A stretch of DNA of 7,951 nucleotides from a virus (taxonomy: Duplodnaviria; Heunggongvirae; Uroviricota; Caudoviricetes), in IMG/VR virus record IMGVR_UViG_2563366854_000004; one strand, given 5' to 3'. The position numbers were made by a program, and so were the translations under genes. Below are positions 1 through 7,951 of the stretch, piece by piece. How positions within the stretch are numbered: position 1 is the first letter of the stretch; every line of letters starts with the position of its first letter. A model generated the notes under the pieces. It worked only from the letters and a program-made list of their open reading frames with translations, did no database searches and was not told the origin of the DNA.

Positions 1-588
1 GACGGTAAAAGTCTCACCCCGGATGATGTGCGTCCGATGCTTGAACAGATGGTGAAGGAGGCGGTAAGCCATATTCATGTTCCGCGTGATGGTCGTGACT
101 ACGATCCGGATGTTCTGCAGAAGGCGGTTCTGGATGCGGTGAGTGCCCTGCCGGCTCCGCAGGACGGGCGTGATGCCACGGCTCTGGAAATACTCCCCGC
201 CATTGACGATCAAAAATCCTTTCCCCGGGGCACGTATGCCACACACCAGGGCGGACTCTGGCGGGCGTATGAAAAAACGCACGGGATGCGGGGATGGGAA
301 TGCCTGGTTGACGGGGTGGCGGATATTGACGTCAGCATGACGGGTGAGCGGTTGTTCTCTGTGGTGGTCCGGCAGAGCAGTGGCCAGCGTACGGAAAAAA
401 CATTTTCCCTGCCGGTGATGCTCTACCGCGGTGTGTTCAGAGCCGGTGAAACCTACCACCCCGGCGATACGGTGACGTGGGGGGGCTCGCTGTGGCACTG
501 CAACAGTATGACCGAAGATAAACCCGGAGAAGCTCATTCATCAGCCTGGACCCTGGCTGCAAAACGTGGGCGGGATGCAGGAGGCTGA
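1..588 (+). CDS. Phage structural protein of unknown function, 5'-truncated at the window edge (reading frame open from base 1)
   Basis: Frame 1 is open from position 1 to the TGA at 586-588, so the listed 28-588 ORF is only the internal-Met part. The stop lies 2 nt before the next gene's ATG, just after its AGGAGG RBS. The C-terminus (ETYHPGDTVTWGGSLWHCNSMTEDKPGEAHSSAWTL) has the spaced aromatic/Gly pattern of small carbohydrate-binding (CBM5/12-like) modules; that is pattern recognition only. Position upstream of a gp6-like connector gene suggests a head-associated protein. Confidence 0.5.
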   Translation, partial: DGKSLTPDDVRPMLEQMVKEAVSHIHVPRDGRDYDPDVLQKAVLDAVSALPAPQDGRDATALEILPAIDDQKSFPRGTYATHQGGLWRAYEKTHGMRGWECLVDGVADIDVSMTGERLFSVVVRQSSGQRTEKTFSLPVMLYRGVFRAGETYHPGDTVTWGGSLWHCNSMTEDKPGEAHSSAWTLAAKRGRDAGG

Positions 589-590
589 AA

Positions 591-917
591 ATGACGGCAT
601 TACTGACACTGGAAGAGATCAAGGCACATCTGCGTGTCGACCATGACGCGGATGATGACATGCTGATGGACAAGGTTCGTCAGGCTACCGCCGTGCTGCT
701 GGCCTACATTCAGGGCAGCCGGGATAAAGTGATCCGTGAGGACGGTGAACTGATCCCGGGCGAGGCATTAACCCGGATGAAGGGGGCTGCCATGCGACTG
801 ACCGGGATGCTGTACCGGAATCCGGATCTTGCGGAGCGGGAAGAACTGCTTCAGGGGGAGCTGCCGTTTTCTGTTTCCGTGCTGATTTACGATTTGCGTT
901 GTCCGACGGTGTTATGA
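591..917 (+). CDS. Phage head-tail connector protein (HK97 gp6-like)
   Basis: 108 aa. N-terminus MTALLTLEEIKAHLRVDHDADDDMLMDKV matches the hallmark start of the gp6-like head-tail connector family. Strong RBS AGGAGG at 579-584, 6 nt before ATG 591. Confidence 0.75.
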   Translation: MTALLTLEEIKAHLRVDHDADDDMLMDKVRQATAVLLAYIQGSRDKVIREDGELIPGEALTRMKGAAMRLTGMLYRNPDLAEREELLQGELPFSVSVLIYDLRCPTVL

Positions 918-926
918 GGAGGGGGA

Positions 927-1277
927 ATGGCAATATCTGCAGGTCGTCTGACACAGATGATAAGTGTTCTGAACCCGGTGTTAACCCGTAACGCTGCCGG
1001 AGAAATGACGGAAGAATGGGTGTCATGCGGGAAAATTCATGCGGATATCCGAGGCAGGAGCAGCCGGGAGCGGATGCAGTCCGGTGCGGAAATGGCGCAG
1101 GCGGAAATCCGCATCTGGGTGCGCGGTCAGTCCGGTCGGGAAATCACGGCAGCGTCACGACTTCATGTGCTGAGTGGTCCATGGCGTGACCGGATCCTGA
1201 ACGTTGTCGGGCTGCCCGTGCCGGATGCGACCGGCGGGCGTCTGGAAATTCTCTGTCGGCTGGGAGGGGAAAAATGA
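927..1277 (+). CDS. Phage head closure / head-tail adaptor protein
   Basis: 116 aa, directly after the connector gene, with purine-rich RBS GAGGAGGGGG at 916-925. Size and position fit the head-tail joining family. Its stop overlaps the next start (ATGA at 1274-1277). Confidence 0.65.
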   Translation: MAISAGRLTQMISVLNPVLTRNAAGEMTEEWVSCGKIHADIRGRSSRERMQSGAEMAQAEIRIWVRGQSGREITAASRLHVLSGPWRDRILNVVGLPVPDATGGRLEILCRLGGEK

Positions 1278-1720
1278 TCGAAACCCTGCTGGATTTTTCG
1301 GGGCTGGAGGACATCAGCCGCGATTTGCAGCTTCTGAGTGGTGCGGAAAATAACCGGGTGCTGCGTGAGGCAACCCGTGCGGGTGCGAATGTGCTGAAAG
1401 AAGAAGTGGTGTCACGGGCACCGGTACGCAGGGGAAAACTGCGCCGCAATGTGGTGGTCCTTTCCCGGCGCTCCCGCGATGGCGGGATGGAATCCGGTGT
1501 CCATATCCGTGGTGTTAATCCGGACACCGGTAACAGCGATAACACCATGAAGGCGGATAACCCGCGCAATGCTTTCTACTGGCGGTTTGTGGAAATGGGG
1601 ACCGTGAATATGCCACCGCACCCGTTTGTGCGCCCGGCGTTTGATGTGCGCAGTGAACAGGCAGCTCAGGTGGCGATTGCGCGGATGAACCGGGCCATTG
1701 ATGAGGTACTGAGACGATGA
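1274..1720 (+). CDS. HK97 gp10-family phage protein (tail-proximal neck component)
   Basis: 148 aa. ATGA start/stop overlaps at both ends (1274-1277 and 1717-1720) indicate translational coupling. Size and order match the gp10-type gene following the adaptor in HK97-like morphogenesis modules. Confidence 0.6.
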   Translation: MIETLLDFSGLEDISRDLQLLSGAENNRVLREATRAGANVLKEEVVSRAPVRRGKLRRNVVVLSRRSRDGGMESGVHIRGVNPDTGNSDNTMKADNPRNAFYWRFVEMGTVNMPPHPFVRPAFDVRSEQAAQVAIARMNRAIDEVLRR

Positions 1721-2088
1721 CGGAGGCGGATTTGTATCCTCATCTGGCGCATCTTGCCGGCGGGCAGGTGTACCCGTATGTGGTCCCCCTGCTGGATGGC
1801 AGGCCGTCGGTGGCGCTTCCGTGGGTGGTTTTCAGCCTGATTTCATCGGTGTCTGCGGACGTGATGGGCGGGCAGGCGGAGTCCTCAGTGTCGGTGCAGA
1901 TAGACGTTTATGCCGGGACTGTGACGCAGGCGCGTCAGATACGTCAGGACGCCCGTGAAGCCATAATGCTGCTGGCCCCGGGATCCGTCAGTGAAATGCA
2001 GGACTATATTCCGGAAAACCGCTGTTACCGGAAAAAGAAGCCATCGTGGATAACGGTGCCCGCTTTGAGCCGCAGTCAGGTTCCCTGA
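1717..2088 (+). CDS. Tail completion / neck protein (DUF3168-like); C-terminus possibly altered by the adjacent deletion junction
   Basis: 123 aa with ATGA coupling to the upstream gene. Motifs [19 protein letters not shown] and SVQIDVYA resemble the gp11-type family. Its last ~14 codons overlap the start of the J-like ORF in another frame. Confidence 0.5.
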
Positions 2089-3725
2089 ACAGCGTCATCC
2101 CACCGGCAGTACAGCACCTGACGGTGGAGGTGAGTGCAGCTGACGGCCAGTATCTGGCGCAGGCTAAATGGGACACGCCGCGGGTGGTGAAGGGCGTGCG
2201 CTTCAGTCTGCGCCTGACCAGTGGTAAGGGAACGGATGCCAGACTGGTGACCACCGCCATCACCGCAGACACGGAGCACCGTTTCAGCGGCCTGCCGCTC
2301 GGGGAATACACCCTGACGGTGCGGGCGATAAACAGCTATGGCCAGCAGGGTGAACCTGCCACCACCACCTTCCGGATTGCCGCACCGGCAGCACCGTCGC
2401 GGATTGAGCTGACGCCGGGCTATTTTCAGATAACCGCCACGCCGCATCTTGCTGTTTATGACCCGACGGTACAGTTTGAGTTCTGGTTCTCAGAAAAGCG
2501 GATTACCGATATCAGGCAGGTTGAAACCACAGCCCGCTATCTTGGTACGGCGCTGTACTGGATAGCCGCCAGTATCAATATCAAACCGGGCCATGATTAT
2601 TATTTTTACGTTCGCAGTGTGAACACCGTTGGCAAATCGGCATTCGTGGAGGCTGTCGGTCGGGCGAGCGATGATGCGGAAGGTTACCTGGATTTTTTCA
2701 AAGGAGAAATCGGGAAAACACATCTGGCCCAGGAGTTGTGGACGCAGATTGATAACGGTCAGCTTGCGCCGGACCTGGCTGAAATCAGGACGTCCATTAC
2801 GAATGTCAGCAATGAAATCACGCAGACCGTCAATAAAAAACTGGAAGACCAGAGTGCGGCAATCCAGCAGATACAGAAAGTTCAGGTTGATACAAATAAT
2901 AACCTGAACAGCATGTGGGCCGTGAAACTGCAGCAGATGAAGGACGGACGCCTTTATATTGCGGGTATCGGAGTCGGTATTGAGAATACGCCAGCAGGTA
3001 TGCAGAGTCAGGTGCTTCTGGCTGCTGACCGGATTGCGATGATTAATCCTGCGAATGGCAACACAAAGCCGATGTTTGTTGGTCAGGGCGATCAGATATT
3101 CATGAACGACGTGTTCCTGAAACGCCTGACGGCTCCGACCATTACCAGCGGCGGTAATCCTCCGGCATTTTCCCTGACACCGGACGGGCGGCTGACGGCG
3201 AAAAATGCCGATATCAGCGGTAACGTGAATGCGAACTCCGGGACGCTCAACAACGTCACGATTAACGAGAACTGTCGGGTTCTGGGAAAATTGTCCGCGA
3301 ACCAGATTGAAGGCGATCTCGTTAAAACAGTGGGCAAAGCTTTCCCCCGGGACTCCCGTGCACCGGAGCGGTGGCCATCAGGAACCATTACCGTCAGGGT
3401 TTATGACGATCAGCCGTTTGACCGGCAGATTGTTATTCCGGCGGTGGCATTCAGCGGCGCTAAACATGAGAAAGAGCATACTGATATTTACTCCTCATGC
3501 CGTCTGATAGTGCGGAAAAACGGTGCTGAAATTTATAACCGTACCGCGCTGGATAATACGCTGATTTACAGTGGTGTTATTGATATGCCTGCCGGTCACG
3601 GTCACATGACACTGGAGTTTTCGGTGTCAGCATGGCTGGTAAATAACTGGTATCCCACAGCAAGTATCAGCGATTTGCTGGTTGTGGTGATGAAGAAAGC
3701 CACTGCAGGCATCACGATTAGCTGA
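2046..3725 (+). CDS. J: Tail tip host-specificity protein J, C-terminal ~559-aa portion (likely a truncated remnant of a >1100-aa gene)
   Basis: Largest ORF in the window. Contains fibronectin-III-like segments (e.g. [23 protein letters not shown]) typical of the central part of lambda J. It lies immediately upstream of lom, as J does in lambda. The start is a GTG at 2046; this frame is open back only to a stop at 1992-1994, so no N-terminal half is present. Confidence 0.7.
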
Positions 3726-3792: not shown

Positions 3793-4392
3793 ATGCGTAA
3801 ATTATGTGCTGTTATTTTGTCCGCAGTAGTCTGGCAGGTCGCCGCTGCTACGCCAGCGAGTGCAGCAGAACATCAGTCCACGCTGAGCGCGGGGTATCTC
3901 CATGCCTCGACGAACGTTCCCGGTAGTGATGATCTGAACGGGATTAACGTGAAATACCGTTATGAGTTTACGGACGCGCTGGGGCTGATTACGTCCTTCA
4001 GTTATGCCAATGCTGAGGATGAGCAAAAAACGCGCTACAGCGATACCCGCTGGCATGAAGATTCCGTGCGTAACCGCTGGTTCAGCGTGATGGCGGGGCC
4101 GTCTGTGCGCGTGAATGAATGGTTCAGCGCGTATGCGATGGCGGGTGTGGCTTACAGCCGTGTGTCGACTTTCTCCGGGGATTATCTCCGCGTAACTGAC
4201 AACAAGGGGAAAACGCACGATGTGCTGACCGGAAGTGATGACGGTCGCCACAGCAACACGTCTCTGGCGTGGGGGGCTGGCGTGCAGTTTAACCCGACCG
4301 AATCCGTGACCATTGACCTTGCTTATGAAGGTTCCGGTAGTGGCGACTGGCGAACGGATGCATTTATTGTTGGTATCGGATACCGTTTCTGA
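3793..4392 (+). CDS. lom: Lom outer-membrane beta-barrel protein (Ail/Lom/OmpX/PagC family)
   Basis: 199 aa. N-terminal signal peptide MRKLCAVILSAVVWQVAAATPASA, alternating amphipathic strands, conserved GINVKYRYE and YEGSGSGDWRTD motifs, and C-terminal GIGYRF ending in aromatic Phe as in OMP barrels. RBS GAGAGG at 3783-3788. Sits between J and stf as in lambda. Confidence 0.85.
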   Translation: MRKLCAVILSAVVWQVAAATPASAAEHQSTLSAGYLHASTNVPGSDDLNGINVKYRYEFTDALGLITSFSYANAEDEQKTRYSDTRWHEDSVRNRWFSVMAGPSVRVNEWFSAYAMAGVAYSRVSTFSGDYLRVTDNKGKTHDVLTGSDDGRHSNTSLAWGAGVQFNPTESVTIDLAYEGSGSGDWRTDAFIVGIGYRF

Positions 4393-6034: not shown

Positions 6035-6618
6035 TGGCATTCAGAATGAGTGAACAAGCACGGACCATAAAAATTTATAATCTGCTGGCCGGAACTAATG
6101 AATTTATTGGTGAAGGTGACGCATATATTCCGCCTCATACAGGTCTGCCAGCAAACAGTACCGATATTGCACCACCAGATATTCCTGCTGGCTTTGTGGC
6201 TGTTTTCAACAGTGATGAGGCATCGTGGCATCTCGTTGAAGACCATCGGGGTAAAACGGTTTATGACGTAGCGTCAGGGGACGAGTTATTTATTTCTGAA
6301 CTCGGTCCGTTACCGGAAAATGTTACCTGGTTATCGCCGGAAGGGGAGTTTCAGAAGTGGAACGGCACAGCCTGGGTGAAGGATACGGAAGCAGAAAAAA
6401 TGTTCCGGATCCGGGAGGCGGAAGAAACAAAAAACAACCTGATGCAGGTAGCCAGTGAGCATATTGCGCCGCTTCAGGATGCTGCAGATCTGGAAATTGC
6501 AACGGAGGAAGAAACCTCATTGCTGGAAGCCTGGAAAAAGTATCGGGTGTTGCTGAACCGTGTTGATACATCAACTGCACCTGATATTGAGTGGCCTACG
6601 AACCCTGTCAGGGAGTAA
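6034..6618 (+). CDS. tfa: Tail fibre assembly protein (Tfa chaperone)
   Basis: 194 aa, immediately after and overlapping stf. Sequence ([24 protein letters not shown] ... [25 protein letters not shown]) matches the lambda Tfa family in size and termini. Confidence 0.85.
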
Positions 6619-6667
6619 TCATTGGGATTATGCCGCAGCACGTCTTAAGCAAGAACGTGCTGCGGTT
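6454..6667. repeat. Direct repeat copy 1: tfa 3' end plus terminal hairpin
   Basis: Aligns by eye with 7502-7716 at roughly 85-90 percent identity (e.g. TTGCGCC ... GATCTGGAAAT ... GCAACGGAGGAAGAAA ... TATCGGGT ... CGTGTTGATACATCAACTGCACC ... CCTGTCAGGGAGTAATCATTGGGATTATGCCGCAG). Homology ends right after the hairpin. Confidence 0.8.
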
Positions 6668-6683
6668 GGATGCTATTTTTTCC
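6633..6683 (+). terminator. Hairpin with downstream T-run after tfa; possible terminator and module boundary
   Basis: 10-bp perfect inverted repeat CCGCAGCACG (6633-6642) / CGTGCTGCGG (6656-6665) with a 13-nt loop, then TTGGATGCTATTTTTT. The T-run is not directly adjacent to the stem, so the terminator call is tentative. An imperfect copy of the hairpin recurs at 7681-7714. Confidence 0.4.
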
Positions 6684-7341
6684 CTGAAGCGGAAAACATT
6701 ACTACAGTACCTTGAACCTTGGTTTTAACATTCTCGAAATGCTCTGAGAGTATATGTGTTAAGCCTTCTTCGGAATCTTTTGTGTTTGAAAAGATGCCTT
6801 TCTGATTGTAAATGCGCATCAGTTTTTGACCGAAGCTATTGTGCACAACTCCATCGCCAAGAATTGTGGCTCCGTATAGAGTTCCATCGTCAGTTAAGGC
6901 CTGCGCCGCATTGCGTATTACACAGCTTTTTGTAGATATATTTCCAGGCAGGCAGTGAAGAAGGTAAAACATGGAAATGGAATCAAATTGACCATGTAAC
7001 GCCGCGGGATAAGGTTCAAAAACATCATGGCTAATTTTATGTTTAATTTTTGATTCCCCAGCCCTTGTAGATGCCGCGTTCAGGCTAGCTTCGTTCAAAT
7101 CCATTAAAGATATCAGACTACTCTCAGGTACGTGAGTAAGGTAAAACCCAGTTCCAACACCAATATCCAGATGGTTGTTACCTACATGTTCCAGAAAGTG
7201 TGGAAGAAGGTGTTCCTTTGTAGGACATCCCCATGCAAGCCGATTTGATACTCCCAAAACCCACCAGTCATAAAGCTTTAGGGTAAGTGGTGTGTAAATT
7301 TTAGCCCCATCATCTGTGTTTTTTTTCATTGATTTCACCAT
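6673..7341 (-). CDS. Class I SAM-dependent methyltransferase (small-molecule/RNA type, not an obvious DNA methyltransferase); cargo gene of unknown function
   Basis: 222 aa on the opposite strand to all phage late genes. Motif I LDIGVGTGFY (glycine-rich SAM loop), acidic end of the next strand (ISLMDLN) and motif-II-like ISMFYLLHC. No DPPY/NPPY motif. Region is visibly AT-rich against GC-rich flanks. From memory it resembles uncharacterised methyltransferases annotated in E. coli cryptic prophages (ybcY / ymfD type); not verified. The true start may be the second ATG (7327-7329), which has a GGTGA Shine-Dalgarno 5 nt upstream. Confidence 0.8.
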   Translation of the reverse strand: MVKSMKKNTDDGAKIYTPLTLKLYDWWVLGVSNRLAWGCPTKEHLLPHFLEHVGNNHLDIGVGTGFYLTHVPESSLISLMDLNEASLNAASTRAGESKIKHKISHDVFEPYPAALHGQFDSISMFYLLHCLPGNISTKSCVIRNAAQALTDDGTLYGATILGDGVVHNSFGQKLMRIYNQKGIFSNTKDSEEGLTHILSEHFENVKTKVQGTVVMFSASGKK

Positions 7342-7370
7342 GTTATAGTTTTATTTGTGAATTAAATCAA
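7342..7370 (-). promoter_or_regulatory. Candidate sigma70 promoter for the methyltransferase gene
   Basis: Read on the minus strand: TTGATT (-35; + strand 7365-7370), 17-nt spacer, TATAAC (-10; + strand 7342-7347). The predicted transcript start falls near the first ATG, favouring the second ATG as the initiator. Confidence 0.4.
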
Positions 7371-7397
7371 TTATGGCGATGAATTACAAGGGGTTAA

Positions 7398-7718
7398 ATG
7401 CTGCCGCAGCATAGCGATATTGAAATAGCCTGGTATGCTTCGATACAGCAGGAGCCGAATGGCTGGAAGACCGTCACCACACAGTTCTACATCCAGGAAT
7501 TCAGTGAGTATATTGCGCCACTGCAGGATGCTGTAGATCTGGAAATCGCAACGGAGGAAGAAAGATCGTTGCTGGAGGCATGGAATAAATATCGGGTATT
7601 GTTGAATCGTGTTGATACATCAACTGCACCGATATTGAGTGGCCTGCAAATCCTGTCAGGGAGTAATCATTGGGATTATGCCGCAGACACGTCGTATGCA
7701 GGAACGTGCTGCGGTTAG
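7398..7718 (+). pseudogene. Tail fibre assembly protein remnant: unrelated ~35-aa N-terminus fused to a frameshifted Tfa C-terminal segment
   Basis: 106-aa ORF. Residues [42 protein letters not shown] match the tfa C-terminal region ([42 protein letters not shown]); the frame then shifts so the ending differs from intact Tfa. The N-terminal part has no similarity to Tfa. Confidence 0.55.
7502..7716. repeat. Direct repeat copy 2: diverged, frameshifted tfa 3' end plus imperfect hairpin
   Basis: Same orientation as copy 1. It has a 1-bp deletion relative to copy 1 (CACC-GATATTGAG versus CACCTGATATTGAG), changing the frame, and a 1-nt insertion in the 5' hairpin arm (CCGCAGACACG). Confidence 0.8.
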
Positions 7719-7780
7719 TTTGTGAGCTTTCGATAGTGGTTGTTATTTTTGCCCTTATTTGTTCCGGAGGCCATGGTTCA

Positions 7781-7951
7781 ATGGTCCGTCTGCCCCCTGT
7801 GGTGATGTCAGCAAAATCAGCCACTGCGCGAACCACAATAGCCCGGGAAGATGCTGAAGATCACCAGGTAAAGCTGTCAGCGCAGAAACTGGAAGAACTG
7901 CTCGCATCAATGGTTAAGGATGAGGTTGATCGCAATGATGGGATTTATTGA
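7781..7951 (+). CDS. Small hypothetical protein (~56 aa), function unknown
   Basis: ATG at 7781 preceded by GGAGG (7766-7770) at 10-nt spacing; ends with TGA exactly at the window end. Charged, likely helical C-terminus (KLSAQKLEELLASMVKDEVDRNDGIY). The longer TTG-initiated version (7670-7951) starts inside the tfa remnant and is not favoured. No family recognised. Confidence 0.35.
   Translation: MVRLPPVVMSAKSATARTTIAREDAEDHQVKLSAQKLEELLASMVKDEVDRNDGIY

Follow-up and report, generated by a model that had tools for sequence, protein, structure and literature searches.

Why does a lambdoid prophage carry a methyltransferase gene on the opposite strand immediately behind its tail fibre assembly gene, and what might the enzyme act on? 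The question is raised by a 7,951-nucleotide stretch of DNA (IMG/VR record IMGVR_UViG_2563366854_000004; the whole of it is called the window here) that is E. coli prophage DNA, and in which a preliminary description had pointed to a 222-aa minus-strand open reading frame (ORF) with the class I S-adenosylmethionine (SAM) motif LDIGVGTG. The ORF list of the window contains precisely such a frame (6673..7341, with HLDIGVGTG at residues 57-65), and the gene is ybcY, a prophage gene that is already annotated and whose promoter has already been published. The feature is ordinary in kind, a moron with a generic methyltransferase. We describe here the cassette on which the gene moves, and we hold with moderate confidence that it is a lysogenic-conversion moron encoding a methyltransferase of small molecules.

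Identity of the gene and mobility of its cassette

In K-12 the copy in prophage DLP12 lies between the remnants tfaD and tfaX, upstream of appY and ompT, and this position identifies the gene as ybcY. Window and K-12 copies share 99% nucleotide identity as well as the synteny tfaD'-gene-tfaX'-appY-ompT, and the window locus thus shows both the near-identity and the order tfa - gene(-) - tfaX' that are expected of an orthologue. The gene is filed under the names ybcY (b0562), CFT073 c0651, a locus tag that one paper equates with ybcY (PMC4778652), and RefSeq WP_000240999.1, 'class I SAM-dependent methyltransferase'. Its protein is 100% identical to our cluster P0002 (6,589 member sequences) and matches PHROG 2132 (E = 4e-157), which is labelled 'unknown function'; a literature search that included the moron and methyltransferase topics found no functional study of ybcY, b0562, c0651, WP_000240999 or STM1638, the Salmonella homologue. 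The earlier view of a family that recurs in enterobacterial prophages and has no assigned function is in line with both.

The gene had further been placed in an AT-rich block between GC-rich flanks, and here only the first half stands. The ORF has a GC content of 41.1% (35.9% at third codon positions) and windowed values show a distinct low-GC block (40-43% over 6600-7500), but the nearby sequences, namely tfa (47.9%), the tail-fibre gene stf (49.7%) and the right flank (48.4%), are not GC-rich, so that the contrast with the immediate flanks is modest. Only in the genes for head and connector does the GC content reach 58.7%, and these lie over 4.5 kb away from the methyltransferase gene.

The evidence for mobility comes from two direct repeats of about 225 bp, spaced 1048-1049 nt apart, and from genomes in which the DNA between them is missing. 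The repeats pair in three segments (6442-6581/7491-7630 with 86% identity, 6583-6638/7631-7686 with 95% and 6639-6667/7688-7716 with 90%), and 35 bases are identical in both copies (6604-6638 = 7652-7686). A synthetic deletion junction that joins 6200-6667 to 7717-7951 was matched without interruption, at 98-99% identity, in at least three genomes (EFF60, NMBU-W13E19 and 190693). In EFF60 the same prophage occupies an identical chromosomal position (lom-stf-tfa-DUF4376'-ompW'-yciE-trp) but has neither the methyltransferase gene nor the 1,048-bp cassette. Within the 35 identical bases the empty site changes from left-copy to right-copy sequence, and since the crossover falls there the cassette is an insertion/deletion with a direct repeat of the tfa 3' end on either side. 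It thus differs in presence between collinear prophages and is distinct in composition, as morons are; the same presence and absence in one prophage at one site, together with the chromosomal homologues outside phages described below, support the earlier proposal that the gene is moron cargo.

Other loci show what moves with the gene. When the window was compared by BLAST with 91 E. coli and phage loci, the minimal module common to them ran from about 6630 to 7622/7644, and the left crossover points differed among the loci, falling within tfa and stf. In O157, manganese catalase and yciE/F/G-like genes lie between tfa and the methyltransferase gene, which still adjoins the truncated tfa gene (tfa') that lies to its right in the window; in phage ev243 the gene stands behind another tail-fibre set, with the tfa' remnant kept. 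Methyltransferase gene, promoter and tfa' therefore travel together, and the presence of other cargo at the same spot in O157 makes the site a cargo hotspot. In O157:H7 ATCC 43888 (our locus L101, 3290-5503) the insert is a second cargo cassette, with genes for manganese catalase and yciE/yciF/yciG-like stress proteins. The tfa' remnant, labelled 'frameshifted; incomplete' by PGAP, always accompanies the methyltransferase gene, and relative to the left copy its frame is shifted near the 3' end by a 1-nt deletion at about 7630. It is also a recurrent ORF family of its own, with a good Shine-Dalgarno sequence (AAGGGG); its N-terminal 30 aa are unique and are followed by the C-terminal domain of Tfa.

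Taken together, these comparisons show that the cassette, which comprises a hairpin, the opposite-strand ybcY-type methyltransferase gene, its promoter region and the truncated tfa' between tfa 3'-end repeats of a lambdoid prophage, is gained and lost as a unit by recombination within the repeats, and that the homologous tfa/stf region is its route from one lambdoid phage to another. As a practical result, a mobile cassette and its empty site are now defined.

Class and substrate of the predicted enzyme

From its sequence and a structural model, the product is predicted to be a class I SAM-dependent methyltransferase of the small-molecule type, with about 218 residues. The Pfam profiles Methyltransf_12 (37.5 bits), 23, 25 and 11 are above their cut-offs, all of them generic class I domains. 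Motif I occupies residues 58-65, with D59, G61, G63 and G65 invariant in 36 family members; at the expected spacing, D81 at the ribose-binding position (end of strand 2) is also invariant and H105-D106 at the adenine-binding position (after strand 3) invariant or nearly so, and both align with their counterparts in CysG and JHAMT. The AlphaFold2 model (mean confidence score pLDDT 90.3) consists of one Rossmann-type domain with an N-terminal helical lid, and motif I, the acidic strand-2 residue and a seven-stranded beta-sheet fold with an above-threshold score are thus found together. Its top neighbours in Foldseek (PmtA, JHAMT, CysG, SgvM, CurJ C-MT, NodS and PfPMT) are all methyltransferases of small molecules or lipids, and the profile matches in the PDB are to JHAMT (8.5e-6, with the family profile) and UbiG (~1e-3). 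The preliminary description had argued against an N6-adenine or N4-cytosine DNA methyltransferase, which agrees with these neighbours and with the protein itself, where DPPY/NPPY occurs nowhere and the motif IV position reads FYLLHCLPG.

A specific family assignment was sought and rejected, as searches of NCBIfam, PADLOC, Pfam and PDB profiles gave generic domains or matches far below threshold (the NCBIfam equivalogs are all far under their cut-offs: CpaM 18 vs 180 bits, RquA 16.9 vs 175, PmtA 15.7 vs 390), and no housekeeping family with a known substrate rose above cut-off in the profile searches. We also set aside domain fusions in longer distant homologues, whose N-terminal extensions carry no Pfam domains apart from one RCC1 fusion, which is probably eukaryotic or a gene-model artefact.

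A lead to the chemistry comes from BelI and CysG, carboxyl O-methyltransferases that depend on Ca and have a His-His-Asp site (PMC11408123; sequences for alignment were taken from its Table S1). An hhalign alignment (probability 91%, 98 columns) places His129-Cys130 of YbcY on the His-His of the Ca-binding HHD motif of CysG. The second His of the motif is an invariant Cys in YbcY, for which reason we reject membership of the HHD metal-site group; the Asp region and the N-terminal helices fall outside the alignment, and the 36-sequence alignment contains no invariant Arg in the YbcY lid. The H129-C130 site is clearly under constraint all the same, and distinctive motifs are invariant family-wide (YDWWVL..SN..AW.C.T, DIGVGTG, YLLHCLPG and YNxKGIFSN..D). 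The enzyme may methylate, in the cytoplasm of the host, a metabolite or xenobiotic of low molecular weight that is probably hydrophobic or carboxylated; the invariant pair stands where related O-methyltransferases hold a catalytic metal. The host would then profit, and not the production of virions.

The alternative that survives best, although we consider it unlikely, is a macromolecular substrate (tRNA/rRNA, or a host or phage protein), as in stand-alone class I enzymes like the tRNA modifiers of the CmoA/Trm9 type or the lysine methyltransferases. The protein would have to act on it with 218 aa, a near-neutral isoelectric point (6.9) and no extra RNA- or protein-binding domain, its closest relatives in sequence and fold are small-molecule and lipid enzymes, and no Trm112-like or other partner appears in any neighbourhood. 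Moreover, the lid carries invariant aromatic residues (Y16, Y24, W26, W27 and W37), and an aromatic-rich lid of this kind would be typical of pockets for small hydrophobic ligands.

Expression, spread and maintenance of the gene

On sequence grounds the true start is most likely the second ATG, at 7329 (Met5), which would give a protein of 218 aa. This rests on five lines of comparison. Met5 is invariant, and nearly all homologues are 218-224 aa long and begin at the residue aligned with it; the PHROG 2132 profile has 218 positions and aligns to residues 5-222; in the nearest relatives with other upstream DNA, AAGGTGAAATCA-ATG takes the place of the window's ATGGTGAAATCA-ATG, homologues L029 and L033 having AAGGTG(A/C)AATCA-ATG there; a Shine-Dalgarno-like motif precedes the Met5-equivalent start in 37 of 51 homologues; and two natural variants have lost ATG-7341 but kept ATG-7329. 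Since the relatives have a Shine-Dalgarno sequence at this place, the annotated first ATG would be a point-mutated form of it. The K-12 gene is a pseudogene: through a deletion of 2 nt it has lost the Met5 ATG, which stands at the beginning of a run of eight adenines. In the window this A8 homopolymer directly follows the real start codon (7318-7329 on the minus strand, ATGAAAAAAAAC) and could be a slippage-prone on/off site. The corrected start matters for expression constructs.

The promoter that had been read as TTGATT, 17 nt, TATAAC is present at 7370..7342(-) and unique in the window. All 88 sampled copies retain the two hexamers at a distance of 17 nt, 12 of them with a perfect TATAAT, and the K-12 sequence is identical to that of the window. 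The same hexamers and spacing are given for ybcY, with an HNS flag, in Table 1 of Shimada 2014, where the divergent ybcY/tfaX spacer of K-12 bound RpoD holoenzyme in Genomic SELEX (systematic evolution of ligands by exponential enrichment, in vitro) and also contains an H-NS site; the proposal of a promoter of its own is thus strengthened by in vitro binding to an identical spacer. We infer independent transcription, convergent to the late operon: the gene would be expressed in the lysogen, or silenced by H-NS and conditionally de-repressed, and antisense late transcription would oppose it in lytic growth. Transcription from a weaker promoter-like site just upstream (TTAACC-16-CATAAT) would leave a leader of about 34 nt that includes the Shine-Dalgarno sequence. 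In the PGAP annotation of an identical genome, a DinI-family remnant lies directly upstream of the promoter (window ~7416-7496, minus strand), which suggests that the cassette once held, or displaced, a dinI-like gene.

At its 3' end the gene abuts a hairpin, as had been described, its stop being 5 nt away; the stem-loop (6632-6667) begins 14 nt after the tfa stop. It folds at -35.5 kcal/mol on the plus and -28.7 on the minus strand (z = -5.3 and -4.4), and no shuffled sequence was as stable. A canonical U-tract is absent on either strand and a terminator scan of the region made no call there, on which account we rejected a canonical intrinsic terminator; the hairpin may be a bidirectional terminator or a transcript stabiliser. 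RefSeq records place a 45-aa 'hypothetical protein' ('nucleocapsid protein' in K-12 derivatives) at 6591-6728 on the plus strand, over the tfa stop, the hairpin and the 3' end of the opposite-strand gene, and this is almost certainly a spurious call.

Of the 5,426 complete E. coli genomes, 3,832 (71%) carry the gene with an identity of at least 95%, in 1-4 copies each, and it is also found in 15 deposited lambdoid phage records, among them the inducible, plaque-forming ev243, 2G7b and PhiR series, and on 165 IMG/VR contigs, usually no more than about 1 kb from the predicted prophage end. Relatives number 2,296 by word-indexed search and form 421 clusters (50% identity) at E < 1e-30 by exhaustive profile search, with 527 species genomes encoding one; identity across genera is 50-68%, and 58 positions are invariant in 36 sequences. 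Those outside phages are chromosomal genes. Salmonella STM1638 is chromosomal and solitary, between a PMT_2 membrane protein gene and rydC/cybB, the Citrobacter homologue (75% identity) is likewise solitary between dgcZ and dcp, as are the chromosomal homologues of Enterobacter and Yersinia, and relatives at 61-67% identity lie on islands with integrases, effectors or adhesins. The GC content of the gene equals that of the host in Pseudomonas, Xanthomonadales and Proteus, and lies 7-12 points under the flanks in Enterobacter, Klebsiella, Citrobacter, Providencia and Morganella. From the island contexts and this pattern of GC we conclude that the family is a horizontally moving bacterial accessory gene. 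Phage contexts are seen only in a subclade at 87% identity or more, so that capture by phages looks recent, and the near-invariance of this subclade (24 alleles, with at most 5 differences in 669 nt) points to recent spread.

Neighbouring genes gave little guidance to function. Clustering of the neighbour ORFs of 75 homologue loci revealed no conserved partner, only generic LysR, SDR and ABC families recurring across genera or lineage-local synteny, and we therefore rejected guilt by association. A single non-generic neighbour is shared by several genera, an IbrA-like (PAPS reductase + DUF3440)/IbrB-like gene pair (L092 3563-5455, L033 15-1798, L013 5618-7470). It lies next to YbcY homologues, or not far from them, in Klebsiella pneumoniae ATCC 13883, in six species of Proteus and, with PerC, on one E. 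coli island. Published experiments on ybcY are equally sparse: its deletion had no effect on Hha toxicity, and in one microarray of a K-12 delta-tynA strain (PMC4778652) the c0651/ybcY probe was 2.7-fold down after induction, together with feaB, which as a single experiment points only weakly to the metabolism of aromatic amines or aldehydes.

Several observations weigh against a transcribed and useful moron. The hexamers of Shimada 2014 are the best computational match within the SELEX-bound spacer rather than a mapped start, and promoter-like sites in the region are no more numerous than in shuffled sequences by our promoter scan. The published -10 ends only 12 nt ahead of the real ATG, so that transcription would start within the Shine-Dalgarno sequence and leave a leader of 5-7 nt. 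For ybcY the literature gives no substrate, phenotype or in vivo transcript start, and K-12 has lost the gene without known consequence. In E. coli the variable codons comprise 12 synonymous and 13 non-synonymous ones, too little diversity to speak for purifying selection (dN/dS within E. coli was dropped for the same reason, at most 5 differences in 669 nt). Could the gene, then, have no current function in E. coli and be a neutral, slowly decaying hitch-hiker between recombination-prone tfa repeats at a permissive site? The dead K-12 copy with its lost start codon, the defective state of the window's own prophage, the pseudogene debris around the cassette (tfa', DUF4376' and the DinI remnant), the polymorphism with no clear skew to synonymous changes and the H-NS binding at the promoter spacer, which fits silencing, would all be in keeping with this. 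However, breakage among the sampled copies is confined to the K-12 allele (87 of 90 intact), every copy retains the promoter hexamers and their spacing, 12 with an improved TATAAT, inducible and plaque-forming phages retain the gene, the family is strongly conserved over about 527 species, and its members recur as cargo on several unrelated islands. We therefore regard absence of function as decidedly doubtful.

The preferred reading, a lysogenic-conversion moron for small-molecule methylation, can be carried further only as a long shot: YbcY proteins may form an undescribed class of stand-alone small-molecule methyltransferases that use the invariant His-Cys pair, where BelI/CysG have His-His, to bind a metal or to activate their substrate, are repeatedly captured by temperate phages and islands of host-associated enterobacteria, and methylate a host or environmental metabolite or toxin after relief from H-NS, altering the fitness of the lysogen. 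If true, about 70% of E. coli genomes would carry a form of lysogenic conversion that is new in its chemistry. Few accessory genes of E. coli prophages are as widespread as ybcY, which is often present in several copies and has a conserved family in hundreds of proteobacterial species that include Salmonella, Yersinia pestis, Proteus and plant pathogens. Once the substrate is identified, thousands of genes annotated as 'class I SAM-dependent methyltransferase' would have a function, and a metabolic kind of lysogenic conversion might come to light.

In decreasing likelihood, the rivals to this reading are an RNA or protein substrate and absence of function, both discussed above, then a role in defence or counter-defence, and last DNA methylation. 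The gene had been singled out as the best candidate in the window for an uncharacterised phage-borne system, and moron positions behind tail-fibre genes often hold genes of anti-phage defence or counter-defence. Such a role would suit both the known cargo hotspot, with its different cassette in O157, and the abortive-infection-like genes ('sce7726 family', 'beta family protein') elsewhere in the wider prophage of one strain. This we find improbable, and the candidacy is not supported: PADLOC returned only mad2 (E = 0.009, 12.9 bits), below threshold and with no domain passing, the gene is single and has no conserved partner, the family is mainly bacterial and chromosomal, with homologues in ordinary contexts in Salmonella, Citrobacter, Enterobacter, Yersinia and Pseudomonas, and the protein does not fold like a DNA methyltransferase. 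An orphan DNA methyltransferase that shields phage or host DNA from restriction is very improbable, for although such orphans are frequent in phages and this prophage type has a 'DNA-methyltransferase' near the Q antiterminator gene, the protein has no (D/N/S)PP(Y/F), carries LLHCLPG at motif IV, is a compact 218-aa single domain with no target-recognition or nucleic-acid-binding domain, and counts no DNA methyltransferase among its fold or sequence neighbours. For practical purposes, the DNA methyltransferase and defence-system readings can be treated as excluded.

The remainder of the prophage offers three further observations. At a junction near 2025/2026 (window 1-2088 to 2046-3725) the portal C-terminus and connector genes (Ad1, Hc1, Neck1, tail terminator) are fused to the last 559 codons of the tail-tip protein J, and the window prophage lacks the genes for major tail, tape measure and tip. 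We found no complete E. coli genome that spans this junction, which is therefore a private deletion, and the prophage must be defective. The lambda moron lom (Ail/Lom outer-membrane protein) is intact at 3793-4392 on the plus strand, between J' and the tail-fibre gene. In a related prophage of strain B-1109 (L001 7964-9593, outside the window), a convergent overlapping 'sce7726 family protein'/'beta family protein' pair between lysis genes and a terminase remnant may be a defence-type module.

Table 1. Coordinates and basis of the features at the cassette, numbered by position in the window.
Feature	Coordinates	Strand	Basis and remarks
Tail fibre assembly gene tfa, 194 aa	6034..6618	+	PHROG 105 'tail fiber assembly' (E = 1e-100), same call by PGAP; 3' end is the left repeat
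Left direct repeat (tfa 3' end and hairpin downstream)	6442..6667		Repeat families D1-D3
GC-rich stem-loop, 15-bp stem	6632..6667	both	Between the stops of tfa (6616-6618) and the methyltransferase (6673-6675)
Cargo cassette, 1,048 bp	6639..7686		DNA missing from the empty site; boundaries can slide by up to 35 bp leftward
Methyltransferase coding sequence (ybcY orthologue)	6673..7329	-	218 aa from the probable start Met5, stop 6673-6675; database annotation 12 nt longer, to 7341
GGTGA, probable Shine-Dalgarno	7335..7339	-	5 nt upstream of ATG 7329; overlaps the probably spurious annotated ATG 7339-7341
Sigma-70 promoter-like TTGATT-17-TATAAC	7342..7370	-	Sole match in the window, 0.01 expected by chance; published for K-12 ybcY
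Alternative, weaker promoter-like site TTAACC-16-CATAAT	7370..7397	-	Promoter scan, 9/12 matches
tfa' remnant ORF (tfaX-like)	7398..7718	+	PHROG 2341 (E = 1e-55); PHROG 105 positions 145-194
Right direct repeat (tfa' 3' end and hairpin variant)	7491..7716		Pairs with the left copy

Comparison with known systems

The closest system is ybcY of DLP12 in K-12, which shares with the window, beyond its near-identical sequence and identical promoter, the arrangement of an opposite-strand gene between tfa(D)' and tfaX', but whose copy is a pseudogene through deletion of the Met5 start whereas that of the window is intact. STM1638 and the other solitary homologues (Citrobacter, Enterobacter, Yersinia, Proteus, the Pseudomonas syringae group and Xanthomonadales) belong to the same family along their whole length (50-75% identity) and share the invariant motifs YDWWVL, DIGVGTG, YLLHCLPG and YNxKGIFSN, and like it stand alone with no conserved partner; they differ in being chromosomal rather than phage-borne, and are annotated just as 'putative SAM-dependent methyltransferase'. 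Similarity to characterised enzymes is more distant. The 3-alkylmalate carboxyl O-methyltransferases BelI and CysG (PDB 9FCE and 9G0K; Ca2+-dependent) share 24% identity over 98 core residues, the critical second His of CysG is the invariant Cys in YbcY, its Asp ligand and Arg gate are not alignable, and both enzymes sit in biosynthetic gene clusters whereas YbcY is solitary. The juvenile hormone acid O-methyltransferase (JHAMT)/UbiG-type small-molecule methyltransferases, the best PDB sequence matches, are alike over the SAM-binding core, but the likeness is limited to this cofactor-binding half, the substrate regions are not alignable, and JHAMT has 'LHW' where YbcY has 'LHC'. Finally, similar to the classical lambdoid morons lom and bor, ybcY is a host-oriented accessory gene in or after the late region, with a lower GC content, that is present in some and absent from other related phages; it differs from them in that the mobility of its cassette is explained by the flanking tfa 3'-end repeats, and its in vivo transcription start and its terminator are putative.

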